This document shows, piece by piece, positions 4,728 to 25,180 of a stretch of DNA of 32,666 nucleotides (positions are counted from its first letter, which is position 1; each line of letters opens with the position of its first letter). Origin of the DNA: Candidatus Binatus sp. (GTDB lineage Bacteria; Desulfobacterota; Binatia; Binatales; Binataceae); contig NZ_DATDGQ010000050.1 in the NCBI RefSeq assembly GCF_036522015.1, positions 1-32,666 of the forward strand, read 5' to 3'. The translations under genes were made by a program, and so were the position numbers. The notes below the pieces were generated by a model. The model did no database searches. It saw nothing but the letters and a program-made list of their open reading frames with translations, and had not been told where the DNA came from.

Positions 4728-5273
4728 TCAATCTTTGACCGGCTCCGTCGGCGCGGGGCCGACGCGGGTGAACGTCACCGGGAATCCATGGCAATCTTTT
4801 GGATTGACGAGTTCTTCGCGAAAATTACTCGCGTCGCTGACGATTATTCTTGCCTGAATCCATCGCGCCTGCAGGAATCCGTGCTCGGCGCAAATCTGAT
4901 CGGCAATCACGATGCCCGGCACGTTTGGATCAAGTCTTCCCTTCCACACGACCTGACCCGGCGGAATACTTTTGTTGCCGTCAACGAGAGTCGCAATGTA
5001 ATTGCGGCCGCGTAGCATCTGGTCGACGCCGATCACCACTCGCAGCGGACCGCCGGGATACGTGGCCATCCAGTTTCCATTGAGTAGCCGCGCTACGTTC
5101 ATCGGCGGCGGAGGCGGCTGCTCGGGTGCGGGCGGAGGCACTGGCATCGACGGTCCCGATGATTGTTGGAACGACTGCGAATTGCAGGAGGAAGTCAGGC
5201 ACGCGAACAGAAGCGCGAGCACCGCAACGAGGGCAGGCGAAGTTAGTGAGTAACGGCGGATCGGACGCGGCAT
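4728..5273 (-). CDS. hypothetical lipoprotein / secreted protein with a proline-rich linker
   Basis: The N-terminus MPRPIRRYSLTSPALVAVLALLFAC has a basic n-region, a hydrophobic core and a lipobox-like LFAC. It is followed by PVPPPAPEQPPPPP and then a globular part of about 120 aa. I recognise no family. Confidence 0.55.
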   Translation of the reverse strand: MPRPIRRYSLTSPALVAVLALLFACLTSSCNSQSFQQSSGPSMPVPPPAPEQPPPPPMNVARLLNGNWMATYPGGPLRVVIGVDQMLRGRNYIATLVDGNKSIPPGQVVWKGRLDPNVPGIVIADQICAEHGFLQARWIQARIIVSDASNFREELVNPKDCHGFPVTFTRVGPAPTEPVKD

Positions 5274-5379
5274 AGATTCCTCCAGCGGACGGATGGTCGC
5301 AGAGTATAGACTGCGCTGCGGCGCAGCACACTATGCCGCGAGGGACGAGGGCAGCAGATCGAGCGGGCGTCGCCGCTAG

Positions 5380-6579: not shown

Positions 6580-6617
6580 AGTACTCACTCCCACACTGGT
6601 CATTAGTCACTGAGTAA

Positions 6618-7544: not shown

Positions 7545-7646
7545 GATATTCTCTCCCGAAAAGCAGGGTGACTGGAAACCCGTATAGCACGTCCGGCGGC
7601 GACCCTGTCAATTTGAACGATCGGTATGTGTTCGCAGGAGTGAGAG

Positions 7647-9167: not shown

Positions 9168-9237
9168 GCAGCCGACTCCGTCCGGCTATGTTCACCTGAT
9201 TCGATCTGGCTATTCTTTCGCAGAGGTTGATACCCGC

Positions 9238-10314
9238 ATGAATCTGCCTGAGTTCCAGAATTTGGACTTGAGCATCGCTCGAGCCCGAATTGCTCTGTCG
9301 CTCATCGCGATGCTGTCCCTGTACGTCGATCCGAGCACCGCGGGTGGCCTGTTCCACCTGAACGCTTATGCGTTGACAACCCTGCTGTGCCATTTAGCGT
9401 ACAGCGTGGGAATGTATGCCGCGCTCAGCCGCCGATATGCGGACTGGAATCTTCAGCTGCTTTCAACCTGCTTCGACCTGTTCTTCGCGACCGCGGTCGC
9501 ATTTATAACTGAAGGGCAAACCAGCGCTTCGTACGTATTCTTTGTCTTCGCGATTATCGCCGCCGGAAACCGCGCCAAGTCGCGCCCGATAGCAACCGTG
9601 ACGGTTTGCAGCGTCGCGCTCTACTTGCTGGTGATAATTCTGACCCAGGGAATTACCAGCGTTTACGATATGCGAGCGGTCTACCTTGCGATCGCAGGAT
9701 ATTTGATCGGCTTCTTCTCGCAGCAACGCGCGTTGTTTGAGGCCGAGGTACGCGAGCTCGAAACCCGCACCGAGCGACAATCGATCGCCCGCTCATTGCA
9801 CGACGGCTACGTGCAGGCACTCGCCGGAGTAAATTTGCGCCTCGAGACCTGCCGCGCGCTGCTGAACCGGAATCGTCCGCAAGACGCGCTCACGGAAATC
9901 ACCGATCTGCAAGCCGGCGTCGCGCGCGAGTACGACGCCGTCCGAATCTATCTGCGCTCTCTCGCCGGCATCGAACAAAGACCCGCCGCGGAATTCGCCG
10001 CGCGAACTTCTGATCCAAGCTTTGAAGTTCGAGCCGCGTTCAGTGGTGGCAGTCTCCTCGGCGAGCATATACTGCAGATCATGCTTGAAGGCCTCCGCAA
10101 CTCCCGCAGCCATGGATTGGCGAACCTGGTAAGGATTGACGTGCGCGAGGTCGAGGACAAGGTTTCGATCACTATCGAGGACGATGGCGTCGGCTTGTCA
10201 GACTCGTCGTCGCGGCCATGGGCTATCGCCTCGAGAGTCGCGGAGCTGGAAGGGCACATGAGCATGCACAGCGACGGCAGCACGCGCTTGCAAATCGAGC
10301 TTCCTAACGGCTAG
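9238..10314 (+). CDS. membrane sensor histidine kinase, HisKA_3 (NarX/DesK-like) class
   Basis: The first ~170 aa contain about 5 hydrophobic helices with only short loops. The H-box is ERQSIARSLHDGYVQAL, the N-box LEGLRNSRSH and the G1 box EDDGVG. The G2 box is degenerate (see findings). Confidence 0.85.
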   Translation: MNLPEFQNLDLSIARARIALSLIAMLSLYVDPSTAGGLFHLNAYALTTLLCHLAYSVGMYAALSRRYADWNLQLLSTCFDLFFATAVAFITEGQTSASYVFFVFAIIAAGNRAKSRPIATVTVCSVALYLLVIILTQGITSVYDMRAVYLAIAGYLIGFFSQQRALFEAEVRELETRTERQSIARSLHDGYVQALAGVNLRLETCRALLNRNRPQDALTEITDLQAGVAREYDAVRIYLRSLAGIEQRPAAEFAARTSDPSFEVRAAFSGGSLLGEHILQIMLEGLRNSRSHGLANLVRIDVREVEDKVSITIEDDGVGLSDSSSRPWAIASRVAELEGHMSMHSDGSTRLQIELPNG

Positions 10315-10327
10315 GCGCGCGACCCCG

Positions 10328-10948
10328 ATGCGTCTCATCATCGCCGACGATCACGCTCTATTCCGCCAGGGCCTCAAGTCGCTGCTGCTGCTTCAACCCG
10401 ACACCCAGGTCGTCGCTGAAATAGAATCGTCAGACGATGTAGCTCCGGTCGTTTCTGACAGCGACAGCGACATTCTTCTGCTCGATCTGCAGATGGACCG
10501 CTGGATGATGGAAGACATCCCGCAACTCAGCCACCTGACAAATGTGATCGTGCTGACTGCGAGCGAGAGCGCCGAAAACGGAGTTAGAGCTTTGCGGCTC
10601 GGCGCCAAGGGTGTTGTGCAGAAGCGATTCGCGATCGAGACCTTGATGATGGCGGTGCGCTCTGTCGCCGACGGCCTGGTCTGGATGCCGCCAACTGTCC
10701 AAACGGAATTTGCACGACAGGAAAGTTCGAGCGGCAAGGAATTGACACGGCGCGAGTGCGAAATTATCCGCTACGTCGCCTCTGGCATGAGGAATATAGA
10801 AGTCGGCGAACGGCTCTCGATAACCGAGAGCACAGTCAAAACTCACCTCGATAATATTTTTCAAAAACTCGGCTTGCGTGATCGTCTCGAACTCACGCAT
10901 TACGCGATCAAGACAGGAATGGTCGCGGTGCTCGATCACAATCGTTGA
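10328..10948 (+). CDS. NarL/LuxR-family response regulator (REC + LuxR HTH)
   Basis: It has the acidic pocket IIADDH, the phospho-acceptor context ILLLDLQMD, VIVLTAS and GAKGVVQK. The C-terminal LTRRECEIIRYVASGMRNIEVGERLSITESTVKTHLDNIFQKLG is a LuxR-type HTH. There is no AAA+/sigma-54 interaction domain. Confidence 0.9.
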   Translation: MRLIIADDHALFRQGLKSLLLLQPDTQVVAEIESSDDVAPVVSDSDSDILLLDLQMDRWMMEDIPQLSHLTNVIVLTASESAENGVRALRLGAKGVVQKRFAIETLMMAVRSVADGLVWMPPTVQTEFARQESSSGKELTRRECEIIRYVASGMRNIEVGERLSITESTVKTHLDNIFQKLGLRDRLELTHYAIKTGMVAVLDHNR

Positions 10949-11148
10949 CCAGCGGTTCCGCTCGGCAGTGATGCACGTATGACAGGCATCGCCGGTCGAT
11001 GAGGCATGGTCATTTTCAATCGAATTTCTCGCGTCAGCAAAAATAACTGCTAGTTGACGAAAATTTGAAACCTATGGTGGATCGCTCACTCCATCGATAG
11101 GTCTACAAATTGATTCATCGTCGGATGGACTCCCGATCATCCGCGTCG

Positions 11149-11164
11149 AGGCATACGTCTTGCT
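11149..11164 (+). promoter_or_regulatory. sigma-54 (-24/-12) promoter candidate upstream of amt1
   Basis: aGGCATacgtcTTGCt compared with the consensus TGGCAC-N5-TTGCW. The GG and GC dinucleotides have the exact consensus spacing. The site lies 91 nt upstream of ATG 11255. Confidence 0.55.
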
Positions 11165-11254
11165 CCAAGAACAAGCGGCGCGATCATGCGTCCGTCGCGC
11201 CGCGCGGAGGCGCGCAGGCCAACGCCAAAAATCTACTTTGGAGGGAGACGATCG

Positions 11255-12811
11255 ATGTACTCAGGAGCAACGGGATTGTGGGACAGAATCCGCGAGAGCT
11301 GGCGAGACCCGATGGTCCGCCGCAATGCGGGTTACCTGATGGCCGGCAAGATGATCGGGCTTGGGCTCGTACTTCTGCTGATTTCGAAATGGTACCTGCC
11401 TGCGACGGCCTACGCAGACGCTGCGCCGGCGCTGCCGCCACCGCAAGTCAACGCGATCAACACCGTCTGGACGCTGGTCGCCGCTTACCTGGTTTTCTGC
11501 ATGCAGGTCGGCTTCGTCATGCTCGAGTCGGGATTCGCCCGTTCGCGTGAGACGGTAAACATCCTGGTCGAAGGAATCGCCGACACCTGCATCTGTGGCG
11601 TGACCTTCTGGTTGTGGGGCTTTGCCTTCATGTTCTGCCCGGGGACGCCGTGGATCGGCACCACCGGCTTCATGCTGCACGGCCTCGCGCCGACCTACGG
11701 CACCACCGGCGTGCCGCTGCTCGCGTACTGGGTCTTCCAGTATGCGTTCGCCGACACCTGCTCGACGGTCACCTCGGGCGCAATGATCGGTCGCTGCGAC
11801 TTCATCGGCGACCTGCTCTACAGCGTCGGCGTGACAGGCTTCATCTACCCAATCATCGGACACTGGGCATGGGGTCCGGACGGATGGCTGGCGAATCTGA
11901 ACCCGGTCAACTTCCACGACTTCGCGGGCTCGACGGTTGTGCACACGATCGGCGGGACGATCTCGCTGGCGGGCGCAATCGCCCTCGGACCTCGGCTCGG
12001 CCGCGTGTTCACACGTGATGGCGGTGAGCCGATGAAACCGCATGACCTTATCATCGGCGCAACCGGTGGACTCATCCTGTGGTTCGGATGGTACGGATTC
12101 AACCCGGGCAGCACGCTGTCCGCGATGGACGCCCAAGGCATCGGCCGCGTCTCGTTCAACACGACGATCGCCGCATGCTCGGCCGGCCTGACCTCGCTTT
12201 TTTACTCATACTACAAGGCCGGCAAATGGGATCTCGCGCTGACGGTTAACGGATTCCTGGCCGGCCTGGTCGCAATTACCTGCCCCTGCTACTGGGTCGA
12301 TCCAGAAGGCGCGTTCCTGCTCGGAATCGGCGCTGGAATCGTAGTGGTCTGGGGCATCGACCTGCTCGAATACCTGCGCATCGATGATCCGATCGGTGCC
12401 GTCCCGGTGCATATGATCGCAGGAATCTGGGGCACGCTCTCGCTGGGGCTCTTCGCCGCCGGCAAGTACGGTGCTCCTACAGCGACCGGAGCGGACACCA
12501 GCAGCGTCGTGACCGGCCTCTTCTACGGCGGCGGCATGGGCGTGTTGAAAGCGCAAATGATCGGCAGCTTTTCGATCACGATCGCGACGTTCGTGGCCTC
12601 GATGGCCTTGATGTATGCGGTCAAGTACGGCTTCAGACTGCGCATTCCGACCGAGGGCGAAATCGAAGGGCTCGACCTGAGCGAGCACGGCTTCCCCGCA
12701 TATCCGGAATACGTTGTCACCGGTGACGACGGTTGCCCGAAGTCGATCGACGATGTACCTGTCGGCAGACGCACCCTGGCACGGCCGTCCAAAGCCAGGA
12801 AGGTCGCTTAG
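11255..12811 (+). CDS. amt: ammonium transporter (Amt/MEP/Rh family), paralogue 1, with a C-terminal extension
   Basis: This is the in-frame portion of ORF 11186..12811 starting MYSGATGLW, with GGAGGGA 7 nt upstream. Amt hallmarks are AAYLVFCMQVGFVMLESGFARSRETVNIL, DFAGSTVVHTIGG, FGWYGFNPGS and PVHMIAGIWGTLSLGLFA. The conserved C-terminal region is EGEIEGLDLSEHG. Confidence 0.9.
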   Translation: MYSGATGLWDRIRESWRDPMVRRNAGYLMAGKMIGLGLVLLLISKWYLPATAYADAAPALPPPQVNAINTVWTLVAAYLVFCMQVGFVMLESGFARSRETVNILVEGIADTCICGVTFWLWGFAFMFCPGTPWIGTTGFMLHGLAPTYGTTGVPLLAYWVFQYAFADTCSTVTSGAMIGRCDFIGDLLYSVGVTGFIYPIIGHWAWGPDGWLANLNPVNFHDFAGSTVVHTIGGTISLAGAIALGPRLGRVFTRDGGEPMKPHDLIIGATGGLILWFGWYGFNPGSTLSAMDAQGIGRVSFNTTIAACSAGLTSLFYSYYKAGKWDLALTVNGFLAGLVAITCPCYWVDPEGAFLLGIGAGIVVVWGIDLLEYLRIDDPIGAVPVHMIAGIWGTLSLGLFAAGKYGAPTATGADTSSVVTGLFYGGGMGVLKAQMIGSFSITIATFVASMALMYAVKYGFRLRIPTEGEIEGLDLSEHGFPAYPEYVVTGDDGCPKSIDDVPVGRRTLARPSKARKVA

Positions 12812-13072
12812 GAATCTGCACGATGTGGACCGCAGCACGGAGACTTTACGGGAGTCATCCATGCGCACGGAACAAACGGGTCGGCCTCAGTCGGAATCAG
12901 CCACCGACTCGGGGCCGGCCCAGAGCTTAAAAAGTTGGGACCGGACGGTGATAAGCGCAGCGAAAAGATTTGCCACCTGCCTCGAGGCTTGCTGATGACT
13001 GCCTGATAAGCGGTTGCCTGTCGTTTAAGCAGACGCATTGCATTTTTCATCAAGATCTATTCGATTTTGAAA

Positions 13073-13088
13073 TGGCACTTTTCCTGCT
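13073..13088 (+). promoter_or_regulatory. sigma-54 (-24/-12) promoter candidate upstream of the APC permease
   Basis: TGGCACttttcCTGCt compared with TGGCAC-N5-TTGCW. The -24 hexamer is perfect and the GC of the -12 element is at the exact spacing. The site lies 86 nt upstream of ATG 13174. Confidence 0.6.
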
Positions 13089-13173
13089 TTAGGCCTCCAC
13101 ATGCTCCCGCCCGTAACGGGAGCCATACGCGTGCGGCGGGCAACCACCTCCGCCGTAAATCGAAGGAGGCAAG

Positions 13174-14844
13174 ATGGCTGAAGAACAGAAAAAGATGGTG
13201 CCGACCCTCGGCTTGACCGGAGTCACGGTCAACGCGATGGCGCTCATCGCCCCGGGAGCTTTCCTGTGGATTACATTTGTCCAACAGGCGGGTTACGCGT
13301 TTCCGTCGGGGATGGCAATGTGGGCCGGAATTTTCGTGGCGTTGATGCTCGCCTACGCCACGGCGCTTTCGTACTCAGAGCTGGCCAAACTTTATCCGGG
13401 CGCAGGCAGTTCGTATCTGTTCGCGGAACAGGCCTTCCTCAGCCGGACCAAGGCGTTCAAGTTTGCGCGTGTGGCGAAGTTCGTAATCGGATGGTCGTCG
13501 CATCTTTATTACTGGATGTATCCCGGCGTCATGGTCGCCACCATGGGCATCATGATCGGCTACATCTTCGGCACCATCGCGCCAGGAACGATGAACGCCG
13601 GAATCCCCGGTCCGGTTTTCATGGCGCTTATCGCGATCATCTTCGCGTACGCCGTTGCCTGGATCGCGTTCCAGGGCGTCAACGGTTCCACGATGGTCAA
13701 TATCGCCATCAACGGAATCCAGATCGTTGCCCTGCTGTTTTTCTCCGCGCTGGCGATTGCTTACCGCGCCGCGCATCCTGCCGGCTCGATGGGTCTTGGC
13801 CTCGATGCGAATGGCAACACTGTCGCGGCAAAGTTGGGAGAATACGTCATAGCGGGCGACCATCCGTCGCACGCCAGCGCACTCTCGGTCATTCTGCCGC
13901 ACAGGTTTGACTGGGTGATGCTGCAGGCGACGGTCGCGATTCTGCTGCTGGTCGGCTTCGAGTCGGTGACCTCACTCGGCGAGGAAGCGATCAACCCCAA
14001 GAAAGACATCCCGCGCGGCGTTCTGCTGTCGCTGACGATCCAGGGGCTGTTCTGCTACCTGATCGAATATTTCGCCGCCAACTATTTCCTGAACAGCGCA
14101 TACAGTCTAGCGGAGGCCAAAGGCTCGGCGGCCCCCCTCGGCGACATGATGACAATTATCGGCAACGCGCTGCTCGGCGGACACGGCACGGCGTTCATGT
14201 TGATGGAAGCGCTGACTGTTTTCCTGGCGCTGATCGGCACGACGCTTTCCTGCATCAACACCGGCGCGCGCGTGACCTACGCGATGGGCCGCGACGAGGA
14301 AGTGCCCGAGCACTTCGGCTTGCTGCACGGCGAAAACCTGACCCCGCATCGCGCTATCTGGGTGCTCGCGACCATCTCTGCCGTACTGGGCGCATACGCT
14401 GCGCTGTTCTACTTCGCCGGCGGCTCGGCGCCTGATGACAAGACGATTGCGACTCTGCCGCACAATATGTGGTACGCGATGGGGATGAGTTCAAACGCGT
14501 CGCTGTCGGCGTTGCCCAACGGCTTGCTGCTGGTGACGCTGACGTCGAACTTCGGAACGTTCCTGCTCTACGGGTTGACGAACATTGTGTGTATCGTCGC
14601 CTACTCCGAGCGGCACGAGTTCCACGGCTTCAAGCACATGGTGGTGCCGATATTCGGCGCGATTGCGAACTTCGCCTGCCTCGCGTTCTACATCATCGGA
14701 CCACTGGAGGGACTCGGCAGTGTGAAGGAACCGCTGATGGCGGTCGCTATCTCGGTGATTTGGGGCGTTTACGGCGCCTGGTACTTCATCCGCAATTCGA
14801 AGAAGAAGGGTAAGGAAACGATTCTCGTAACCAAGCCGGCCTGA
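13174..14844 (+). CDS. APC-superfamily permease (amino acid / polyamine / organocation transporter); substrate unknown
   Basis: 556 aa with at least 12 predicted hydrophobic helices and an APC-type N-terminal block LSYSELAKLYPGAGSSYLFAEQAF. GAAGGAGG lies 5 nt upstream of the ATG. Confidence 0.8.
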   Translation: MAEEQKKMVPTLGLTGVTVNAMALIAPGAFLWITFVQQAGYAFPSGMAMWAGIFVALMLAYATALSYSELAKLYPGAGSSYLFAEQAFLSRTKAFKFARVAKFVIGWSSHLYYWMYPGVMVATMGIMIGYIFGTIAPGTMNAGIPGPVFMALIAIIFAYAVAWIAFQGVNGSTMVNIAINGIQIVALLFFSALAIAYRAAHPAGSMGLGLDANGNTVAAKLGEYVIAGDHPSHASALSVILPHRFDWVMLQATVAILLLVGFESVTSLGEEAINPKKDIPRGVLLSLTIQGLFCYLIEYFAANYFLNSAYSLAEAKGSAAPLGDMMTIIGNALLGGHGTAFMLMEALTVFLALIGTTLSCINTGARVTYAMGRDEEVPEHFGLLHGENLTPHRAIWVLATISAVLGAYAALFYFAGGSAPDDKTIATLPHNMWYAMGMSSNASLSALPNGLLLVTLTSNFGTFLLYGLTNIVCIVAYSERHEFHGFKHMVVPIFGAIANFACLAFYIIGPLEGLGSVKEPLMAVAISVIWGVYGAWYFIRNSKKKGKETILVTKPA

Positions 14845-14877
14845 TCCCGAACGAGCTGGTCTGGCGAATAAATCCCT

Positions 14878-14912
14878 GGGGCGAGCCGCGAGCAATCGCG
14901 GCCCGCCCTTTG
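14878..14912 (+). terminator. rho-independent terminator after the APC permease
   Basis: GGGCG-a-GCCGCGA-gcaa-TCGCGGC-c-CGCCC followed by TTT. Confidence 0.6.
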
Positions 14913-14964
14913 GCCGTTGAACGGACTTGACTCGCGAGCGTGTTAGCTGGGTAGTTCACTGCAA

Positions 14965-15792
14965 ATGGATTCGCCGCCCTCCGCTCCTCCTTCGGTGGAG
15001 CAGGCTTTCGAGCTGGCGCTGTTGTCCGACGTCGGTACGACGCGCCCTGACAATGAAGACTCGTGTGGGCATTTCATCGAGAGTCCCGAGAGCGCGGTGT
15101 TCGCGGTTGCCGACGGCGTCGGCGGCTACGAAGGCGGCGAGGTCGCCAGCCGGATGGCGATCGACATCTTGCTCGAGGCGTACCGCGAGAGCCCGCCGGA
15201 TTGGGGCGCCGCCAAGCGGCTCTATCGCGCGATCACGCGGGCCAACATCGGGATCCACGACAAGGCGCTGACCGTGCCGGAACTGTCGCGCATGGCCACT
15301 ACCATGACCGCGGTCGCCGTCGAGAAAGGAATCCTGTCGGCGGTGCACATCGGAGATTGCCGGTTGCATTTGATTCGTCATAGCCAAATCTCGGTGGTCA
15401 CCAAAGATCACACAATGGTCGCCGACAAGGTTCGGATGGGCGTAATGACGGCCGCGCGCGCCAAAACTCATCCCGAGCGCGGAATGCTCCTGCGCAGTCT
15501 CGGACGCGAGTTGATAGCTTCGATCGATCGAATCACGATGCCGCTGTTCGAGCGCGACCGGCTGATATTGTGCAGCGACGGACTATACAACACGCTCGAG
15601 GACAAGGAACTCGAATCGCTCTCGCGCGACGTTGACGCGGAGACTGCATGCCGCAAGCTGATCGATACCGCCAACCAGCGCGGCACGCACGATAACCTGA
15701 CCTGCGCAGTCTTCAGAATGACCACGCACACGGGGCATACGCTGGCCACCGGCGGATGGCGCGAGCGCCTGCGCGGACTGTTCCGGAGATGA
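14965..15792 (+). CDS. PP2C-family Ser/Thr protein phosphatase (cytoplasmic)
   Basis: PPM motifs appear in order: RPDNEDS, FAVADGVGG, HIGDCR, LCSDGL and GTHDNLT. Confidence 0.9.
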   Translation: MDSPPSAPPSVEQAFELALLSDVGTTRPDNEDSCGHFIESPESAVFAVADGVGGYEGGEVASRMAIDILLEAYRESPPDWGAAKRLYRAITRANIGIHDKALTVPELSRMATTMTAVAVEKGILSAVHIGDCRLHLIRHSQISVVTKDHTMVADKVRMGVMTAARAKTHPERGMLLRSLGRELIASIDRITMPLFERDRLILCSDGLYNTLEDKELESLSRDVDAETACRKLIDTANQRGTHDNLTCAVFRMTTHTGHTLATGGWRERLRGLFRR

Positions 15793-15879
15793 TGCATTCG
15801 AGCGGCGACGTCCTCTTCCATTGCCGCGGCGCCGGATGTTAACGTCCGCTGACTCTTTCGTCCCGAGACGGTCCAGAAA

Positions 15880-16893
15880 ATGCGCGAGGTCAGTGTCGGT
15901 GAAAACCTCGATCAGTACAAGTTGATCGAGGTGATCGCGCGCAGCGGGATGGCGTCGATCTTCAAGGCCATCGATCAAATCGACGGCAAGACCGTCGCCA
16001 TCAAAGTCCCCTACATGCAGTTCGAGAGCGACGTGATCTTCTACGGCCGCTTTCAGCGCGAAGAGGAAGTTGGACGCCGCCTCGACCATCCCGGCATCGT
16101 CAAGGTCCTCACGCCCAGGAAAAAAAGTCGCATGTACATTGCGATGGAGTACATCGAGGGCGACTCGCTGCGATCAATGATGCGGGAACCCGGATTGCCG
16201 CAGGAAAGGGCGCTGGAACTCGCGCGGCAGTTGGCAGAGACGCTGGTGTACATGCACGGCGAAGGTGTCGTGCATCGCGATTTGAAGCCGGAAAACATCC
16301 TGGTGACGGCTGAAGGCCAGACCAAGATCATGGACTTCGGAATCGCACTCGACGAATCGGCGCGGCGCCTGACCTGGTCCGGGCTGTCGTCGACCATCGG
16401 CACTCCCGACTACATGGCGCCCGAACAGGTCAGCGGCCGGCGCGGCGATGTCCGCACGGACATCTATTCGCTGGGAGTGATTCTCTACGAAATGTTAACC
16501 GGCCACCTGCCGTACTCAGGCCCCAACGTTTACAACGTCATGCGCGCGAAGACCGCGGAAGATCCGCAGCCGCCATCCGCGTTCAAGCCCGATCTCGATC
16601 CGCATCTCGAGGAGATCGTGCTGCACGCGATCGAGCGCAACCCGCGCGACCGCTATGCGAGCGCAGGCCAGATGCTCGTGGACCTGCGCGACCCCGCTCA
16701 GGTCATTCCGCAGAATCGCGCGGAGCGCCTTCATCCGCGCAGCCTCGCGATGCAGAACATGCGCCGCCGGCTTGGTTACGTGCTGTTTTTTACGTCGCTC
16801 ATCGGGGCTTTTTTGTTTTTGATCTGGCTCGCAAACCGTTACCCGGCGGCGAAGGGTCCTCCGCGCCGGTCATATCGAGGGCAGATGAGATGA
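15880..16893 (+). CDS. Hanks-type Ser/Thr protein kinase with a single C-terminal transmembrane anchor
   Basis: Motifs present are VAIKV, HRDLKPENIL, DFGIA, GTPDYMAPE and DIYSLG. The C-terminal helix is LGYVLFFTSLIGAFLFLIWLANRY, followed by a 16-aa tail. Its stop overlaps the next gene's start (ATGA at 16890..16893). Confidence 0.9.
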   Translation: MREVSVGENLDQYKLIEVIARSGMASIFKAIDQIDGKTVAIKVPYMQFESDVIFYGRFQREEEVGRRLDHPGIVKVLTPRKKSRMYIAMEYIEGDSLRSMMREPGLPQERALELARQLAETLVYMHGEGVVHRDLKPENILVTAEGQTKIMDFGIALDESARRLTWSGLSSTIGTPDYMAPEQVSGRRGDVRTDIYSLGVILYEMLTGHLPYSGPNVYNVMRAKTAEDPQPPSAFKPDLDPHLEEIVLHAIERNPRDRYASAGQMLVDLRDPAQVIPQNRAERLHPRSLAMQNMRRRLGYVLFFTSLIGAFLFLIWLANRYPAAKGPPRRSYRGQMR

Positions 16894-18329
16894 TGCCGAG
16901 ACGATCGCAACTCGGATTGGCCGCGGCGATTTTTGCGGCACTGGCGCTGTTCTCGTTTCCGATGCTCGCAAGCGCGCAAACCGCCGCGTCATCGCCGCCG
17001 CTGGACAATTCGCTGAACCTCGCGTGGCTGCTGATCGCCGGTTTCCTCGTGATGTTCATGCAGCTCGGATTCGCGATGGTGGAGACGGGCTTCACGCGTT
17101 CGAAAAACGCGGTCAACACCATGGCGATGAATCTGATCATCTACCCGATCGGCATCATCGGTTTCTGGCTCACCGGTTACGGCTTCATGATGGGCGGCGT
17201 CGCGCACTGGCCGTCGCTCGGGATGGGCGCGATCGGTCATCACGAGTTATCGATCACGATCGGCGCACATTCGTACGGCATTCTCGGATTCAGCAAATTT
17301 GCGCTGCTCAACGTCAGCCGCGATCCCGCCAGCCTCGGCATGTTTCTGTTCTCGCTGGTGTTCATGGACACCGCCGCGACCATTCCGACCGGCGCGATGG
17401 CTGAACGGTGGAGGTTCAAAGCGTTCTTCATCTACGGACTGTTCATGTCGATGTTCCTGTACCCGCTGTACGGCAACTGGGTGTGGGGCGGAGGTTGGCT
17501 CTCGCAACTCGGCGTCAACCTGGGACTCGGCCACGGCCATCTGGATTTCGCCGGATCGTCGGTCGTGCACATGACCGGCGGAGTGACCGCGCTCGCCGGC
17601 GCGTACATGGTGGGTCCGCGCATTGGAAAATTCCGGCGCGACGGCGCGATCGGCGCGCTGCCGGGACACAACCTGCCGATGGCAGTCAGCGGAACTTTGA
17701 TCCTCGCGTTCGGATGGTTCGGCTTCAACTGCGGCTCAACGCTCGCTGCGTCCGATCCGCGAATCGCGATCATCGCGGTGAACACGATGCTCTCATCGGC
17801 GGCCGGCGCGCTCGCGTCACTGCTCTACCTGTGGCATCGCTACAACAAGCCCGACATCGCGATGGCCAGTAACGGGCTGCTGGGCGGACTCGTCGCGATC
17901 ACAGCGCCGTGTGCGTTTGTAACGCCTGCGGCGGCGGTCTTGATCGGCACAGTAGCGGGTCTGCTGGTCGTGTGGGCGGTGCTGGAACTCGAGCGCCGCT
18001 ATCGAATCGACGATCCGGTCGGCGCGATCGCCGTCCACGGGGTGTGCGGAATATGGGGCGCGCTCGCGCTCGGCCTGCTCGCCGACGGCACCTACGGCGA
18101 TGGATGGAACGGCGTCGCAGGACCGGTGACCGGCTTGCTCTACGGCGACGTGGGCCAATTTTTCGCGCAACTGATCGGTGTTTCTGTGAACATCGTGGTG
18201 GTCTTCGGTCTGTCGATGCTGTTCTTCAAAATCGTCGAGCGCACGATCGGCAATCGCGTGCTGGTGGAAGTGGAATGGTCGGGGCTCGATGCGTTAGAGA
18301 TGGGAAGCGACGCTTACCCGCATTCGTAG
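16890..18329 (+). CDS. amt: ammonium transporter (Amt/MEP/Rh family), paralogue 2, with a cleavable signal peptide
   Basis: The signal peptide is MMPRRSQLGLAAAIFAALALFSFPMLASA-Q. Hallmarks are AGFLVMFMQLGFAMVETGFTRSKNAVNT, DFAGSSVVHMTGG, FGWFGFNCGS and AVHGVCGIWGALALGLLA. The C-terminal region is VEVEWSGLDALEMGSDAYP. Confidence 0.92.
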   Translation: MMPRRSQLGLAAAIFAALALFSFPMLASAQTAASSPPLDNSLNLAWLLIAGFLVMFMQLGFAMVETGFTRSKNAVNTMAMNLIIYPIGIIGFWLTGYGFMMGGVAHWPSLGMGAIGHHELSITIGAHSYGILGFSKFALLNVSRDPASLGMFLFSLVFMDTAATIPTGAMAERWRFKAFFIYGLFMSMFLYPLYGNWVWGGGWLSQLGVNLGLGHGHLDFAGSSVVHMTGGVTALAGAYMVGPRIGKFRRDGAIGALPGHNLPMAVSGTLILAFGWFGFNCGSTLAASDPRIAIIAVNTMLSSAAGALASLLYLWHRYNKPDIAMASNGLLGGLVAITAPCAFVTPAAAVLIGTVAGLLVVWAVLELERRYRIDDPVGAIAVHGVCGIWGALALGLLADGTYGDGWNGVAGPVTGLLYGDVGQFFAQLIGVSVNIVVVFGLSMLFFKIVERTIGNRVLVEVEWSGLDALEMGSDAYPHS

Positions 18330-18452: not shown

Positions 18453-18481
18453 TTGACCTGAACAAACCAATGTTTTATTAT
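18453..18481 (+). promoter_or_regulatory. sigma-70-type promoter candidate P1 (TTGACC-N17-TATTAT)
   Basis: The -35 hexamer is at 18453..18458 and the -10 hexamer at 18476..18481. It lies in the only AT-rich island of this region. Confidence 0.5.
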
Positions 18482-18500
18482 ATAGCCACCTTATAAACAC

Positions 18501-18529
18501 TTGACACAATTTTGCTTTCCTTCTATCTT
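18501..18529 (+). promoter_or_regulatory. sigma-70-type promoter candidate P2 (TTGACA-N17-TATCTT)
   Basis: The -35 hexamer is at 18501..18506 (a perfect match) and the -10 hexamer at 18524..18529. It lies 27 nt upstream of ATG 18556. Confidence 0.5.
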
Positions 18530-18555: not shown

Positions 18556-19119
18556 ATGAAATTCGGCGGAGATTCTCCCGAACTCGACGCTATTGACCTG
18601 CAGATTATCGCCCTGCTGCAGGAACACGGCAGGATTCCGCTCGTCAAACTTGGAGAGCAAGTCGGGCTTTCGGCGCCTTCGATCAACGAGCGCGTCAAGA
18701 AACTGGAAGACGGCGGCGTCATCATCGGCTATCACGCCACCGTTGACGCGACGCGCCTCGGCAAGGACGTCACTGCATTTATCGGCGTGTCGATCGCGCA
18801 TCCGAAAACCATATCGCTGTTCGAGGAATCCGTCGCGTTGCTCGACGACGTTCTCGAATGTCATCACGTCACCGGCCAGCACACGCTCATGATGAAAGTC
18901 AAAACCGAGAACACTTCGTCGCTCGAGCGGCTCATCAGTGCGATCCGCTCGATCGAGGGAGTGGCGCGGACGGAGACGATGGTAGTGCTGTCGACGCATA
19001 CCGAGCGCGGATTGATTTCGCCGCACACCAATGGCGACTCGAGCGAGCCGACCAACGGCCGGCGCCATCGTCATGCCTCCGCGAAATCTGCGCCCCCGGA
19101 TCCAAGGCGAGTGTCATGA
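18556..19119 (+). CDS. Lrp/AsnC-family transcriptional regulator with a ~35-aa basic/low-complexity C-terminal tail
   Basis: The HTH_AsnC region is [47 protein letters not shown], followed by a RAM/AsnC_trans_reg domain (VTAFIGV...[13 protein letters not shown]...[10 protein letters not shown]). GAGGA lies 9 nt upstream. Its stop overlaps the gltB start (ATGA at 19116..19119). Confidence 0.9.
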
Positions 19120-22100
19120 TGCATAACTACCGAAGCATGCCGAAAAAGCAGGGCCTCTACGATCCCGCGCATGAGCACGACGCGTGCGGCGTCGGCTTCG
19201 TCGTCAATATCAAGGGCGAGCGCTCGCACGACATTGTGGCCAAGGGCCTGCAGGTGCTCGACAACCTGACGCATCGCGGCGCTTGCGGATGCGATCCGCG
19301 CACGGGCGATGGCGCTGGAATCCTGTCGCAGATTCCGCACGAGTTTTTCGCGAACGAAGCGACGCGGCTGGGATTCAAACTGCCCGCGGCCGGCGAATAC
19401 GGTGTCGGCCAGGTTTTTTTTCCAGTGGACGCGGTGAAGCGGAAGGAGTGCGAGGACGCATTCGAGAGAATCGTGAATGAGGAAGGGCAGCGGCTGCTCG
19501 GGTGGCGCGACGTGCCGGTGGTGGAATCCGCGTGCGGCGATATCGCGCGCCGTGGGATGCCGGCGATCCGGCAAGTCTTCATCGCGTTCAGTCCGGAAGT
19601 GAAGGGCGTCGAGGCGATCGAGCGCAAGCTGTACGTGATTCGCAAGCGCGCTATGACCGAAGCGGAGAGACTCGGCCTCTTCGATCCCGAACTATTTTAT
19701 TTCTGCAGCCTCTCGGCACTGACCGTCGTTTATAAGGGTCAATTGATCTCGACGCAGCTACCGCAGTTCTTCCCCGATTTACTCAACGACGCGTTCAAGT
19801 CTGCGCTCGCGATGGTGCATCAGCGCTTCTCCACCAACACTTTCCCGAGCTGGGACCGCGCGCATCCGTACCGCTTCATGTCGCACAACGGCGAGATCAA
19901 CACGCTGCGCGGCAATATCAACTGGATGGTCGCGCGCGAGAAACTCTTCTCGTCGCCGCTGTTCGGCGACGACATCAAGAAGCTGCTGCCCATAGTCGAG
20001 CCCAACGGCAGCGACTCGGCGACCTTCGACAACTGCCTCGAGCTGCTGATTCGCACCGGCCGTTCGATCCCGCACGCCGTGATGATGATGATTCCGGAAG
20101 CGTGGCAGAACGATCGGCAGATGAGCGACAGCAAGCGCGCATTCTACGATTTTCATTCGTGCATGATGGAGCCGTGGGACGGCCCCGCGTCGATCGCGTT
20201 CACCGACGGAATCAGAATCGGCGCGGTGCTCGATCGCAACGGCCTGCGTCCATCGCGCTATACAGTGACCAAGGACGGGCTGGTCGTGATGGCGTCGGAA
20301 ACCGGAGTGCTCGACATCGCGCCGGAAAACGTCGCGCACAAAGGGCGCCTGCAGCCGGGCAGAATGTTTCTCATCGATACCGCGCTCGGCAGAATCGTGC
20401 AGGACGAAGAGATCAAGGAGTCGATGGCGGCGCGGCAGCCGTATCGCGAATGGCTGGACAGCAGCCTCGTCACACTCGAGTCGCTTCCCGAGGCAAGTGG
20501 CGCCCCCGCGGTTGACTACTTCGAGGGCGACGAGTTGCTCAAGCAACAGCAGTCGTTCGGCTATACGATCGAGGATCTCAAAATGATTCTCGCGCCGATG
20601 GCGACGAACGGGCAGGAGCCGGTTGGCTCGATGGGTACCGACACTCCGCTCGCGGTGCTCTCGAACAAACCTCAGCCACTCTACAACTACTTCAAGCAGT
20701 TGTTCGCGCAGGTGACGAATCCGCCGATCGATCCGATTCGCGAGGAGCTGGTGACCTCGACCGAGACGACGATTGGGGCCGAAGATAATCTGTTCGAGGA
20801 ATCGGCGCGTCATTGCCGTCAGCTCCAACTCAAGCAGCCGATTCTCACCAACGAAGAACTCGAAAGGATCAAACGGCTGGACATCGAGGGCCTGCGTACC
20901 GTCACGCTGCCGACGCTGTACCGCGTGGCGGACGGTGAAGCCGGACTTCGCGCTGCGCTCGACACCCTTTGCAGAAGGGCCTCCGACGCGATCGAATCCG
21001 GCTACACGATAATCGTGCTGTCGGATCGTGGCGTGAACGCGGACCAGGCCGCGATCCCCGCTCTGCTCGCGACGGGCGCCGTGCATCATCATCTGATTCG
21101 CGAAGGCACTCGCACGCGCGCCGGGATCGTCGTCGAGTCGGGAGAACCGCGCGAGGCGATGCATTTTTGTCTCCTGGTCGGTTACGGCGCAGGCGCCGTG
21201 AACCCGTACCTCGCGTACGCGACGATGGCCGGGATGATTCGCGACGGCCAGCTCCGCGACATCGACGAAGACACCGCGGTTCACAACTTCGTCAAAGCCG
21301 TTGGCAAGAGCATCACGAAAGTCGCGTCGAAGATGGGGATCTCGACGACGCAGAGCTATCGCGGCGCGCAGATTTTCGAGGCGATCGGATTGGCCGAAGA
21401 CGTGATCGACAAGTACTTCACCTGGACGCCGTCGCGAGTGGCCGGCGTCGGCCTCGACGCGATCGCGCGCGAGACCGCAGAGCGTCACACCTACGCGTTC
21501 AAGGTGGCGGTGAATCTCGACGGCGATCTCGACGTGGGCGGTCAGTACCAGTGGCGCCGCGCCGGCGAGTTCCACATGTACAACCCGAACACGATCGCGC
21601 GTTTGCAGCATTCAGTGCGCTCGGGAAATTTCCGGCTGTTCAAGGAATACACAAAGGCTGTTGACGAGCAGAGTCGGTCGCTCGCCACGCTCCGCTCGTT
21701 GCTCAAATTCAATTCCAGCCGGCCCCCTGTGCCGCTCGAGCAAGTCGAGCCCGCCAGCGAGATCGTCAAGCGCTTCAAAACCGGCGCGATGTCGTTCGGA
21801 TCGATCGGCAAGGAGGCGCACGAAAATCTCGCCATCGCGATGAACCGCATCGGCGGCAAGAGCAACACCGGCGAAGGCGGCGAGGATCCCGCGCGATTCG
21901 TGCGCGATGCCAACGGCGACTTCCGCCGCAGCGCGATCAAGCAGGTCGCGTCGGCGCGCTTCGGCGTCACCAGTCATTACCTGGTCAACGCCGACGAACT
22001 GCAGATCAAGATGGCGCAAGGCGCGAAACCGGGAGAGGGCGGCCAGCTTCCCGGCCACAAGGTTGACGACTTCATTGCGAAGATTCGCTACTCGACACCG

Positions 22101-23675
22101 GGCGTGGGATTGATCTCTCCGCCGCCGCATCACGACATCTATTCGATCGAAGATCTCGCGCAGCTCATTCACGATCTGAAAAATTCCAACAATCGCGCGC
22201 GCATCAGCGTCAAGCTGGTCGCCGAGGTCGGCGTCGGCACGATCGCCGCCGGAGTGGCGAAAGCCAAAGCGGACGTCGTGCTGATCAGCGGTTACGACGG
22301 CGGCACCGGCGCATCGCCGCTACAATCGATCAAGCACGCGGGAATTCCGTGGGAGCTTGGACTGGCCGAGACGCAGCAAACCCTCGTGATGAACGGCCTG
22401 CGCGGACGAATCCACGTCGAGACCGATGGCCAGCTCAAGACCGGCCGTGACGTCGCGGTCGCCGCGCTCCTCGGCGCCGAGGAATTCGGTTTCGCGAGCG
22501 CCGCGCTCGTCGCCTCGGGATGCATCATGATGCGCGTCTGCCATCTCAACACTTGCCCTGTCGGCATCGCCACGCAGGATCCAGTGCTGCGCGAGAAGTT
22601 CTCGGGCAAACCCGAGCACGTCGTGAATTTCATGATGTTCATCGCGGACGAACTGCGCGAATACATGGCGCAGTTGGGCTTCCGCACGCTTGCTGAAATG
22701 GTCGGCCACGTCGAATGCCTCGATGCCAACGAAGCGATAGCTCATTGGAAAGCGCGCAACGTCGATCTGGCCAATATTCTTCGACGTCCCGACGTCGGCC
22801 CGGACGAGCCGCTGCATTGTATAGAGCTACAGGATCACGGCCTCGACAAGGCGCTCGACAACCAGATCATTGAGCTCGCAAAGGATGCGCTCGAGCATCG
22901 CAAACCGGTCGAAATTCATCTGCCCATCCGCAACGTGAACCGAACCGTCAGCACGATGCTGTCGGCGGAGGTGTCGCGGCGCTTTGGCGCGGAGGGATTG
23001 CCGCCATACACGGTTCAAATTCATCTGAACGGCTCGGCGGGTCAGAGTTTCGGCGCGTGGCTCGCGCCGGGAATCGCGCTCCATCTCGAGGGCGATGCGA
23101 ACGACTACTGCGGAAAGGGGCTGTCGGGTGGTTTCATATCAGTGCGCCCGCCAAAGGAAGCGACGTTCAAGGCCGAGGACAACATCATTATCGGCAACGT
23201 CGCGCTGTACGGCGCGACCGGCGGCGAAGCGTTCTTTCGCGGCGTCGCCGGCGAGCGATTCGCGGTGCGCAACAGCGGTGCGCATGCCGTCGTCGAGGGC
23301 GTCGGCGACCATGGATGCGAATACATGACGCGCGGGTTGGTCGTGGTGCTCGGCAAGACCGGCCGCAACTTCGCGGCCGGGATGAGCGGGGGAGTTGCCT
23401 ACGTGCTCGACGAAGACGGCTCGTTCGCCTCGCGTTGCAATCCTGGGATGGTCGAGTTGGGTCCAATCGACAGCCAGGACGAACTCAAGCAGTTGCACGC
23501 GCTGATAGTGCGGCATGGGCAGTACACCCAGAGCGAGGTCGCGCGGCGAATCCTCGACAAATGGGACGAGTACACGAGGAAATTTGTGAGAGTATTGCCG
23601 ACTGAATATCGGATGGTGCTCGAACGGCAGCACCTCAACATGGATTCCGACCTCGCGCGGTTGGCCGCGGTTTAG
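19116..23675 (+). CDS. gltB: glutamate synthase (GOGAT) large subunit
   Basis: This is the in-frame 1519-aa part of ORF 18858..23675. The N-terminus is [28 protein letters not shown], with Ntn-amidotransferase Cys1 after a propeptide. The FMN/Fe-S central domain ([37 protein letters not shown]) and the C-terminal GXGXG beta-helix domain are both present. Confidence 0.97.
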
Positions 23676-23734: not shown

Positions 23735-25180
23735 ATGGGCAAGATCACGGGCTTCATGGAGATTAAGCGCGAGATTCCTTCGCGGCGTCCGGTCGGCGAA
23801 CGCCTGAAGGACTGGCGCGAGTTCGATCTCAAGATGCCCGAGGACAAGTTGCGCGCCCAGGGTGCCCGGTGCATGGATTGCGGAATCCCCTTCTGCCACA
23901 AGGGATGCCCGCTCGGCAACATCATTCCCGACTGGAACGATCTCATCTACCGCGGCAGGTGGCGCGAGGCGATCGACCGTCTGCACGCGACCAACAATTT
24001 TCCGGAATTCACCGGCAGGATTTGTCCCGCCCCATGTGAAGAAGCCTGCGTCCTCAACATCAACAACGATCCCGTCACGATCAAACTGATCGAGAAAAAC
24101 ATTATCGATCATGCGTGGGCGGAAAAATGGATCAAGCCGCTGCCGCCCGCGCGCAAATCGGGCAAACGCGTCGCGGTCGTCGGCTCGGGACCGGCAGGCC
24201 TGGCCTGCGCGCAGCAACTCACCCGCGCCGGACATTCGGTGACGCTTTACGAGCGGTCGGATCGTGTCGGCGGATTGCTCACTTACGGAATTCCGGACTT
24301 CAAGCTGGAAAAGTGGATCGTGAATCGGCGCGTCGAGCAGATGAAGGCCGAGGGGCTCGAAATTGTCACCAACTGCCGCGTCGGAATCGATATCCATGCC
24401 GACGAAATGCGCTCGAAGTACGACGCAATCGCGCTCACAATGGGCGCGACCAAACCGCGCGACCTGCAGATTCCCGGACGCGAGCTCAAGGGAATCCATT
24501 TCGCGATGGATTTCCTGCCACAGCAGAACAAGCGCAACTTCGGCGACGCACTCGAGCCGGCCTCCGAGATCACCGCGAACGGAAAGCGCGTCGTAATACT
24601 CGGCGGCGGCGATACAGGCTCAGATTGCCTCGGCACGTCGAATCGCCAGGGCGCAATTGTCGTGCATCAGTTCGAATTGCTTCCGATGCCGCCGGAGAAA
24701 CGCACCGATGACATGCCGTGGCCCGACTGGCCGATGATCATGCGCACCTCGAGCTCGCACGAAGAGGGTGTGCAGCGCGACTGGAGCGTGAACACGAGCA
24801 GGTTCTCCGGCGAAAACGGCGCGGTGAAAAAGCTTCACGGCGTGCGCCTCAACTGGAAGCCGGACAACGGCCGCATGGTGATGGAACAAATTCAGGGCAC
24901 CGATTTCGAAATCGAGTGCGACCTCGTGCTGCTCGCGCTTGGATTTCTCGGCCCCGAGCCCGACGGCATAATCTCGGAGCTCGGACTCAAGCTCGATCCG
25001 CGGAGCAACGTGCAGTGTGAGAACTACATGTCGAGCGTGCCAGGAGTTTTCGCGGCCGGGGACACGCGTCGCGGACAATCGCTGGTGGTGTGGGCGATAT
25101 GGGAGGGACGCGAAGCCGCGCGCGCGGTCGACGCCTATCTGATGGGCGAGACGTTCCTGCCTTCGAGTCCCGAACTCTGA
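23735..25180 (+). CDS. gltD: glutamate synthase small subunit (NAD(P)H-dependent)
   Basis: It opens MGKITGFMEIKRE and carries the Fe-S cysteine clusters CMDCGIPFCH...GCPLGN and CPAPCEEAC. The dinucleotide folds are VAVVGSGPAGLACA and VVILGGGDTGSDC. GGGAGAG lies about 10 nt upstream. Confidence 0.95.
   Translation: MGKITGFMEIKREIPSRRPVGERLKDWREFDLKMPEDKLRAQGARCMDCGIPFCHKGCPLGNIIPDWNDLIYRGRWREAIDRLHATNNFPEFTGRICPAPCEEACVLNINNDPVTIKLIEKNIIDHAWAEKWIKPLPPARKSGKRVAVVGSGPAGLACAQQLTRAGHSVTLYERSDRVGGLLTYGIPDFKLEKWIVNRRVEQMKAEGLEIVTNCRVGIDIHADEMRSKYDAIALTMGATKPRDLQIPGRELKGIHFAMDFLPQQNKRNFGDALEPASEITANGKRVVILGGGDTGSDCLGTSNRQGAIVVHQFELLPMPPEKRTDDMPWPDWPMIMRTSSSHEEGVQRDWSVNTSRFSGENGAVKKLHGVRLNWKPDNGRMVMEQIQGTDFEIECDLVLLALGFLGPEPDGIISELGLKLDPRSNVQCENYMSSVPGVFAAGDTRRGQSLVVWAIWEGREAARAVDAYLMGETFLPSSPEL

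Follow-up and report, generated by a model that had tools for sequence, protein, structure and literature searches.

A PP2C/Hanks-type kinase gene pair associated with an APC-type permease and ammonium transporters in Candidatus Binatus and its relatives

Introduction

A single whole contig of 32,666 bp from a metagenome-assembled genome (MAG) of Candidatus Binatus sp.—analysed here at full length and referred to as the window—carries ten listed genes, all on the forward strand between positions 9238 and 25180. Among them are genes for a soluble PP2C/PPM Ser/Thr phosphatase (14965–15792, 275 aa), a Hanks-type Ser/Thr kinase (15880–16893, 337 aa) and a 479-aa ammonium transporter, Amt2 (16890–18329), preceded by a gene for a 556-aa permease of the APC superfamily (13174–14844) with a sigma-54-type -24/-12 element upstream (13073–13087) and a GC-rich hairpin just beyond its stop codon (14878–14912). 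Comparison with related loci supports a specific functional link of the phosphatase and kinase to two kinds of nitrogen transporter within a nitrogen-limitation cassette.

Ser/Thr phospho-control of nitrogen permeases in eukaryotes and Hanks kinase/PP2C pairs in bacteria are both already known. Post-translational control of ammonium uptake in bacteria has so far been explained almost wholly by PII/GlnK plugging, and in a 2023 review of prokaryotic Amts no regulators are named beyond GlnK and the KsAmt5 histidine-kinase fusion (PMC10433425). In the literature on bacterial kinase/PP2C links to Amt, PII or APC permeases we found no description of the cassette reported here or of the permease family, nor of PP2C–kinase fusions as a family linked to nitrogen. 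An original prediction, made from the letters of the window alone, had treated phosphatase, kinase and amt2 as a PII-free operon and a candidate phospho-switch on the transporter; here we examine that unit, redraw its limits and weigh what the kinase and phosphatase may do in it.

Results

The open reading frames (ORFs) of phosphatase, kinase and amt2 lie where the original prediction had placed them, with the 87-nt gap that it gave between the first two, and Pfam confirms all three families (PP2C_2 and PP2C, Pkinase, Ammonium_transp). The phosphatase matches PF13672 at 61.6 bits (cut-off 24) and PF00481 at 35.9 bits (cut-off 20.3), and its translation holds the metal-binding Asp motifs DNEDS, DGVGG, SDGL and DN; against the NCBIfam equivalog for Stp1/IreP it scores 207.5 bits, below the cut-off of 230, and is therefore not a curated member of that subfamily. 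The kinase matches PF00069 at 163.9 bits (cut-off 31.7) over a catalytic domain at residues 15–260, has a degenerate Gly-rich loop (ARSGMAS) and carries the motifs VAIK, HRDLKPEN, DFG and APE, which are invariant across an 80-sequence alignment. Because the catalytic and metal-binding motifs are intact, both enzymes look catalytically active.

The remainder of the kinase also has the predicted layout, a single C-terminal transmembrane (TM) helix with a short tail: one hydrophobic helix at about residues 298–318 is followed by some 19 residues of basic tail, and a Pfam scan of the window protein found no domain beyond the catalytic one. At about residues 268–285 lies a juxtamembrane motif, DLxDPxxVxxxxRAxRLHP, whose consensus across the family is DLxDPxxVxxTGRxxRLxxP and which reads DLRDPAQVIPQNRAERLHP in the window. 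In all family members the motif leads through a basic stretch to a single TM helix with a short tail, an architecture kept in every phylum. We looked to the residues of the helix for a specific intramembrane partner and found none conserved across phyla, the juxtamembrane motif alone being conserved. The protein also falls short of the Stk1/PknB PASTA family (NF033483), with 287.3 bits against a cut-off of 450 and a match confined to profile positions 7–275, the kinase domain; PASTA repeats are absent, the chain terminating shortly past the TM helix. Four entries named ‘Amt family ammonium transporter’ in the 90% identity cluster of the kinase, which might have pointed to a kinase–Amt fusion, proved to be plain Amt2 sequences and hence a listing artefact.

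A kinase search of one genome per GTDB species gave 80 best loci, numbered L001 onward, in which we looked for every protein of the window and, with two queries, for PII. The kinase relatives in these 80 species genomes are 45–97% identical over nearly the full length, TM region included: 66–97% in Binataceae, 52–61% in Polyangia and Anaeromyxobacter, and 45–57% in Gemmatimonadales, Acidobacteria, Planctomycetota, Verrucomicrobiota, Nitrospirota, Geomonas, Desulfobacteraceae, Baltobacteraceae and Roseiarcus.

The association of phosphatase and kinase noted in the window holds among these relatives, a PP2C gene lying directly upstream on the same strand in 57 of 77 loci. In 33 of the 80 loci the two are fused in one ORF of about 600 aa, an arrangement backed by independent gene calls of 597–598-aa products matching both PP2C and Pkinase (L087–L089); the split form occurs in 24 loci, from Binataceae, some Polyangia and a few others. 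By this comparison, the two window genes appear to be the split form of one membrane-anchored, bifunctional PP2C/Hanks kinase, and the fusion in 33 of 80 loci argues that phosphatase and kinase work jointly on shared targets. One relative, L085, whose kinase is 83% identical, keeps only the first 75 PP2C residues (in a 92-aa ORF, 10211–10489) and has lost amt2; its cassette seems to be decaying while the kinase is kept.

Kinase–amt synteny, whose absence had been set beforehand as a refuting result, is present: an Amt gene follows the kinase directly in 34 of 67 loci, including all 21 Binataceae and all ten Polyangia with enough downstream sequence. More widely, an Amt gene lies within 10 kb in 55 of 80 loci, from about ten phyla, and the permease gene lies within the flanks in 57 of 70. 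In the 53 loci whose flanks both reach 5 kb or more, the permease is found within 5 kb in 42 and an Amt in 38; 34 have both, eight the permease only, four an Amt only and seven neither. The most constant partner of the PP2C/kinase is thus the APC permease, which the original prediction had left out, so that the unit it drew, from PP2C to amt2, was too narrow.

The same association is seen from the permease side. Four permease relatives, taken from a profile search and picked regardless of the kinase, all have an adjoining PP2C/kinase, and in three of the four an Amt gene follows the kinase gene directly or after a small UPF0060 gene. The gene orders are Perm–GlnA–PP2C/kinase–UPF0060–Amt in L087, beside nif-associated genes and two PII genes (Perm denoting the permease); Perm–PP2C/kinase–UPF0060–Amt in L088; Perm–GlnA–Perm–PP2C/kinase in L089, with porin–Amt–PII upstream on the opposite strand, its Amt–PII pair lying about 3.3 kb away; and, in L090, a PII gene and a divergent PP2C gene, then Perm–kinase–Amt. 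The glutamine synthetase gene (Gln-synt_N/C) between permease and PP2C–kinase is found at 7990–9402 in L087 and 8058–9467 in L089, which are unrelated MAGs. The cassette core consists of a sigma-54-type promoter, an APC-type permease, a hairpin and the PP2C/kinase, joined very often by an Amt and sometimes by PII or glutamine synthetase.

Two further genes recur beside these. One, for a YnfA/UPF0060 membrane protein of about 107 aa, lies between the PP2C–kinase fusion and the Amt gene in Nitrospirota, Geomonas and Desulfobacteraceae (L063, at 11147–11470, L068, L071, L074, L077, L087 and L088). The other, for a BBP2/OmpL-like beta-barrel porin, is often found beside the cassette (L040, at 5896–7188, L011, L013, L063, L071, L073, L074 and L089), and in some Binataceae (L006, L009–L011, L013 and L015) it sits between permease and PP2C, which accounts for the 2.2–2.5-kb gaps between these genes there. 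The porin may let the same substrate in through the outer membrane.

The permease itself matches PF00324 (AA_permease) at 40.3 bits against a cut-off of 24.6, and scores well below the cut-offs of the curated APC subfamilies TIGR00909 (89.7 vs 556.8), BcaP (75.6 vs 690) and CAT (41.1 vs 681.7), with its best sequence matches in the PDB at E ~1e-5. An AlphaFold 2 model (pLDDT 66, pTM 0.74) shows a 12-TM APC/LeuT fold closest to AdiC, GkApcT and LAT. Foldseek returned a probability of 1.0 against AdiC, GkApcT, LAT1 and KimA alike, with 13–19% identity to solved APC structures and target-normalised TM-scores of 0.66–0.75 for amino-acid transporters and 0.54–0.57 for KimA. The structural matches are informative at superfamily level only and the model is of moderate quality, and we make no call on the substrate from them.

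Amino-acid carriers of the APC type have a G-[ST]-G motif in TM1. Here TM1 reads IAPGAF in its place, within the stretch NAMALIAPGAF, which is invariant in alignments across phyla, as is VGFE in TM6. Identity between phyla is 47–59%; among 1.84 billion cluster representatives the permease has 2,281 matches at E ≤ 1e-3 and 237 at E ≤ 1e-30, and a profile search retrieved more than 8,000 clusters at 90% identity. By these alignments and searches, the family is a compact, slowly evolving and uncharacterised APC subfamily, whose only labels are ‘APC family permease’ and the automated JGI name ‘APA basic amino acid/polyamine antiporter’. The model places a variable insert of 30–106 aa in the extracytoplasmic TM5–TM6 loop, and Ser542 at the cytoplasmic end of the last helix, TM12. 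In two alignments spanning phyla Ser542 is invariant within the C-tail motif YFxRxSKKKGK, and we regard it (RxSKKKGK) as a candidate phosphosite.

Amt2 matches PF00909 at 363 bits and TIGR00836 at 377.7 (cut-off 343.3) and has a signal peptide. All of the residues F107, W148, D160, H168, W212, F215, S219, T273 and H318 of Escherichia coli AmtB are conserved in it and in Amt1, a 541-aa transporter encoded at 11186–12811 and assigned by Pfam, TIGRFAM and these pore residues. The kinase stop codon (TGA, 16891–16893) overlaps the amt2 start codon (ATG, 16890–16892) as ATGA, as had been read from the sequence, with a Shine-Dalgarno-like GAGGG 9–13 nt upstream of the start; the 4-nt overlap recurs in the gene calls of L081–L084 and in L001, L002, L003, L016 and L021 and points to putative translational coupling.

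The original prediction had proposed Ser targets in the C-terminal region of Amt2, which ends in EVEWSGLDALEMGSDAYPHS, and of these one holds up on comparison. In the clade of Amt2 proteins encoded next to the kinase in Binataceae and Polyangia the consensus of this region is GNRVxAEVEW[STN]GLDxxEMG[ST][DE]AYP. Position 473, in EMG[ST][DE]AYP, is Ser or Thr in every kinase-adjacent member of the clade, whereas Ser464 (WSGLD) is replaced by N, A or V in some Polyangia. The equivalent of position 473 is the Glu of HGE in E. coli AmtB and of [EQ]HGE in the PII-coupled Amts of the same loci. Ser473 is thus a candidate phosphosite in Binataceae and Polyangia.

The amt1 gene lies upstream of the cassette only in the closest relatives (L002, L003, L016 and L021), PII occupying that position in other Binataceae, and is a lineage-specific addition. 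In the window and in these four loci Amt1 has a 35-aa extension past the conserved C-terminal region (12700–12811 in the window), ending in AYPEYVVTGDDGCPKSIDDVPVGRRTLARPSKARKVA and containing a conserved basic, Ser/Thr-containing motif, GRRTLARPSK; it may be a further regulatory or phospho-site tail. Upstream of amt1, the window and its nearest relatives, L002, L003 and L016, alone have a HisKA_3 histidine kinase gene (9238–10314 in the window) and a NarL/LuxR-type response regulator gene (10328–10948), which may encode a lineage-specific regulator of amt1.

The claim that PII is missing held for the window and failed for the system. A tblastn search of all 32.7 kb with E. coli GlnB and GlnK found no PII (best E = 0.55). 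Elsewhere PII is found inside the cassette, and lies within 10 kb of the kinase in 19 of 80 loci. Six Binataceae loci with kinases about 75% identical (L005, L018 and L081–L084) have the order PII–permease–PP2C–kinase–amt2 and the 4-nt overlap of kinase and amt2, with PII heading the operon in L081–L084, and PII also stands directly upstream of the permease in loci of Verrucomicrobiota, Acidobacteria and Roseiarcus. The order in L021 is amt1–PII–amt–PP2C–kinase–amt2, and L085 retains PII–amt. The amtB–glnK type of operon, which neither window amt gene forms, is found in L065, L071 and L074, where PII comes directly after the cassette Amt, an order seen in Nitrospirota and Eremiobacterota. With the nitroreductase gene upstream as a landmark, the histidine kinase, response regulator and amt1 genes of the window fill the place that PII holds in relatives. 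The missing PII is therefore a local feature of this contig rather than a property of the system.

The sigma-54-type element, TGGCACTTTTCCTGC, lies some 90 nt ahead of the start codon of the permease and matches the motif with one mismatch. Promoters of this kind are marked by GG at -24 and GC at -12 with fixed spacing (TGGCAC-N5-TTGC) and by conservation in orthologous loci. All 21 Binataceae loci with upstream sequence have such an element 92–184 nt upstream of the conserved permease start; overall, sites precede 27 of 56 permease genes and 11 of 25 PII genes, against a background of 0.069 per kb per strand, or about 0.02 expected per gene. They are rare upstream of PP2C (2/65), kinase (5/88), Amt2 (5/57) and gltB (0/15), too few for us to retain a sigma-54 promoter for the PP2C–kinase–amt2 part. 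From the concentration of sites at permease and PII genes, the first gene of the cassette is most likely that of the permease, or PII in loci that have it, and the cassette would be sigma-54-dependent like classical nitrogen-limitation genes.

The hairpin that had been noticed between permease and PP2C is there (the paired region at about 14878–14909), GC-rich with a T-tract that is weak in the window, TTT only. The 120-nt spacer folds at -50.4 kcal/mol (z = -2.0). Hairpins with unrelated stem sequences occur at the same position in Binataceae and in most other phyla, some with strong T-runs, and because it recurs there with different sequences we take the hairpin to be a real, conserved element. 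The pattern fits a candidate partial terminator or attenuator that would hold the regulators below the level of the transporter.

Within the 87-nt PP2C–kinase spacer there may be a promoter, suggested by L001, a complete chromosome (OY970324.1) with a 94% identical kinase, because it keeps kinase–amt2 with a nearly identical stretch of about 60 nt upstream. At this site L001 has a nitroreductase gene followed by kinase–amt2–lrp–gltBD; the histidine kinase, response regulator, amt1, permease and PP2C genes are absent from it, and neither permease nor PP2C is found within 10 kb upstream. Aligned with window 7647–15879, L001 8352–10000 looks like the product of a clean deletion of these genes, or else of an insertion in the window lineage. 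Taken over the loci surveyed, the cassette seems to be horizontally widespread and to decay or reshuffle in some lineages.

Downstream of amt2 lie genes assigned by Pfam to an Lrp/AsnC regulator (lrp, 18556–19119) and glutamate synthase (gltB, 19116–23675, and gltD, 23735–25180). The stop codon of lrp and the start codon of gltB overlap as ATGA (19116–19119), because of which the regulator is probably translationally coupled to glutamate synthase; the gltB start in the program-made ORF list (18858) is too early. Two good sigma-70-like promoters lie at 18453–18529, in the AT-rich spacer upstream of lrp. The original prediction had offered lrp–gltBD as a possible output of the cassette. It follows amt2 at variable distance in Binataceae only, in most of them, and with this restricted occurrence and promoters of its own we do not count it as a member.

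On the other side, upstream of the cassette (1075–9167), the window has genes for an amidase, a TetR regulator, a luciferase-like monooxygenase, a 181-aa ORF without family, an amidohydrolase_2, a cyclase and a nitroreductase. The block is syntenic with L085 1–7811 and ends directly at the nitrogen cassette; its genes may form a catabolic cluster for amides or N-heterocycles, with ammonia set free.

Discussion

The synteny would fit the transporters either as targets or as sensors. We tentatively favour reversible phosphorylation of the cytoplasmic tails of the co-encoded transporters by the kinase and phosphatase, a reading that we hold to be plausible, though short of probable. Under nitrogen limitation the cassette would be transcribed from the sigma-54 promoter, with the hairpin downstream of the permease keeping expression of the regulatory genes below that of the transporter. 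The C-terminal helix would keep the kinase at the membrane, where kinase and opposing phosphatase would together set the phosphorylation of the transporters’ short cytoplasmic tails, so that uptake could be tuned post-translationally. We favour this account because of the fused opposing activities, the membrane anchor, the conserved Ser residues in the tails and the precedents described below. What the loci show directly is gene content and architecture, the fusion, the synteny, the conserved promoter and hairpin, and intact catalytic and pore residues; sigma-54 and nitrogen control, the identity of the substrates and the direction of information flow are parts of the model that we infer. Its most ambitious form—a mobile, sigma-54-controlled cassette in at least ten phyla, in which the PP2C/Hanks kinase directly gates both the APC permease and the ammonium transporter alongside PII—we consider rather unlikely as a whole.

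Several points weigh against tail phosphorylation. The equivalent of Ser473 is absent from cassette Amts of other phyla (EVxVxAYPDF in Nitrospirota, for example), because of which the Amt cannot be the universal target. Among the fully flanked loci, the seven that have the kinase without either transporter and the eight that lack an Amt sit poorly with it, and a Ser at the end of a helix may be conserved for structural reasons. A bifunctional enzyme with no sensor domain still requires an input, and the hairpin could split the permease and PP2C–kinase–amt2 into separate transcripts.

The closest analogy is found in yeast, where the kinase Npr1 controls both Mep2, of the Amt family, and Gap1, of the APC family. 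As in the cassette, a Ser/Thr kinase is tied to nitrogen limitation and to partners from these same two families; Npr1, however, is soluble, eukaryotic, TORC1-controlled and has no fused phosphatase, so that the likeness is one of analogy, not homology. In yeast, control acts through short cytoplasmic regions at the C-terminus; structures of Mep2 have been published (PMC4852598). The cassette kinase, by comparison, is a tail-anchored enzyme that has a PP2C as partner or fused domain, and its gene shares an operon with those of the transporters.

In plants, CIPK23, with CBL1, phosphorylates Thr460 in the C-terminal region of AMT1 and thereby trans-inhibits the trimer. C-terminal phosphosites have also been described for AMT1;3 (PMC6760267). 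Ser473 of Amt2 lies in the same conserved C-terminal segment (GLD...G.xAY) as the regulatory Thr of AMT1, although on a reading of the motif Thr460 aligns with Leu469 of Amt2 rather than with Ser473; kinase family and control differ too, and the Ser473 site is not kept in the cassette Amts of other phyla. Among bacteria, Synechocystis has an Amt1 that is phosphorylated, by a kinase not yet known, and more strongly so when nitrogen is limiting (PMC4379935).

Control by GlnK resembles the favoured arrangement in that ammonium entry is governed post-translationally, under nitrogen limitation, by the product of a gene adjoining that of the transporter, AmtB. The window amt genes differ in having no PII neighbour, a kinase and phosphatase adjoining instead. 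The kinase does not simply replace PII, because both coexist in some operons.

A second explanation makes the transporters the input: the permease, the Amt or both would act as trigger transporters or transceptors that co-sense and shift the kinase/phosphatase balance, the transport cycle being read through the TM helix and juxtamembrane motif of the kinase. The output would then be a soluble protein encoded nearby or elsewhere, such as glutamine synthetase, a regulator of glutamate synthase (GOGAT), a transcription factor or, on the pattern of PknG–GarA, an FHA protein. This would suit a kinase in which no sensor domain accompanies the TM anchor and the conserved juxtamembrane motif; the minimal recurring unit, permease plus PP2C/kinase, present with these alone in eight loci; the insertion of GlnA between permease and PP2C/kinase in L087 and L089; and the presence of lrp–gltBD after amt2 in most Binataceae.

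Such co-sensing has precedents. The APC-family lysine permease LysP co-senses for the single-pass regulator CadC, and in Actinobacteria GlnH and GlnX feed the kinase PknG, with the FHA protein GarA/OdhI downstream. The latter system is similar in tying a Hanks kinase to nitrogen and glutamate metabolism with input through a membrane protein, and GOGAT genes are nearby in Binataceae; PknG, however, is soluble, has rubredoxin and TPR domains and is not orthologous to the cassette kinase, and clustering of all ORFs in the 80 loci found no GlnH, GlnX or FHA protein. A bacterial precedent for Amt-linked phospho-signalling is KsAmt5 from Kuenenia stuttgartiensis, in which an Amt that has become an ammonium sensor is fused to a histidine kinase (PMC10433425). 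There, too, an Amt is coupled to a protein kinase, physically in that case; the differences are that KsAmt5 is a sensor covalently joined to a histidine kinase, whereas the cassette has a separate gene for a Hanks Ser/Thr kinase and a transport-intact Amt2.

Other evidence counsels against the transporters as input. The same clustering of ORFs found no conserved soluble candidate substrate; Amt2 retains all pore and gate residues, although Mep2 illustrates that a transceptor role would still be compatible with this; the TM helix of the kinase lacks the cross-phylum conserved residues that a specific contact within the membrane may need; and the gltBD link is limited to one lineage. We consider this explanation unlikely, if worth keeping in view.

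A third possibility is that the PP2C/kinase reversibly phosphorylates the T-loop of a co-encoded PII and so decides whether PII plugs the permease or Amt, as a functional substitute for uridylylation by GlnD and analogous to phosphorylation of cyanobacterial PII at Ser49. The cyanobacterial PII-P phosphatase PphA is a PP2C, and to our knowledge the kinase of that PII is still unidentified. Both systems have a PP2C in or near nitrogen signalling, and position 49 is Ser or Thr in the majority of cassette PIIs; many loci have a PII gene immediately before the permease, with sigma-54-type sites at the 11 of 25 PII genes noted above, a fused modifying and demodifying enzyme echoes the logic of GlnD, and a membrane anchor would put the enzyme where transporters sequester PII. 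Against this, 61 of the 80 loci have no PII within reach, nor does the whole window, and the 80 best loci include no cyanobacterial member. Some cassette PIIs (L038, L043 and L055) have Ala or Leu at position 49, Tyr51 is always retained, and within the same loci the PIIs next to canonical Amts vary in the same way. We had tried the T-loop as a discriminator and set it aside, since position 49 can be S, T, A, L or R whether the gene lies beside the permease or a canonical Amt. Phosphorylation of PII is in our view quite improbable.

The weakest explanation, that an ordinary multi-substrate housekeeping pair of the Stp/Stk type lies among nitrogen genes by coincidence, would agree with best NCBIfam matches to generic Stk1 (catalytic domain only) and Stp1, with the multi-substrate habit of many bacterial Hanks kinases and with the seven of 53 fully flanked loci lacking either transporter, but is made very improbable by the permease–PP2C–kinase order with a nearby Amt in about ten phyla, by the four permease-side look-ups that all recover the PP2C/kinase, by a family-specific juxtamembrane motif and 45–61% cross-phylum identity that mark a distinct orthologous group, and by scores under the Stk1 and Stp1 cut-offs with no PASTA domains. 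Adjoining PP2C and Hanks kinase genes with a membrane-anchored kinase are shared with Stk1/PknB–Stp1/PstP and with PknF of Mycobacterium tuberculosis, which phosphorylates the adjacent transporter Rv1747. The cassette differs from these systems in lacking extracellular domains, in having APC and Amt rather than ABC partners, and in its frequent fusion.

Conclusions

Regulation of co-encoded transporters through their tails can be tested on defined elements—the PP2C–kinase fusion, permease Ser542 and Amt2 Ser473—and cultured carriers of the cassette exist in Geomonas sp. Red32, on NZ_JAKLOY010000011.1, and Anaeromyxobacter oryzisoli SG63, on NZ_JALCZA010000071.1. Thousands of genomes from soil, peat and sediment carry the cassette, in the little-studied phyla Binatota, Verrucomicrobiota, Planctomycetota, Acidobacteriota, Nitrospirota and Myxococcota, and its uncharacterised permease family is likely to be relevant to nitrogen scavenging in soils. 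If the favoured account is true, these bacteria would have a second regulatory layer besides GlnK plugging, a prokaryotic counterpart of the Npr1–Mep2/Gap1 and CIPK23–AMT1 switches.

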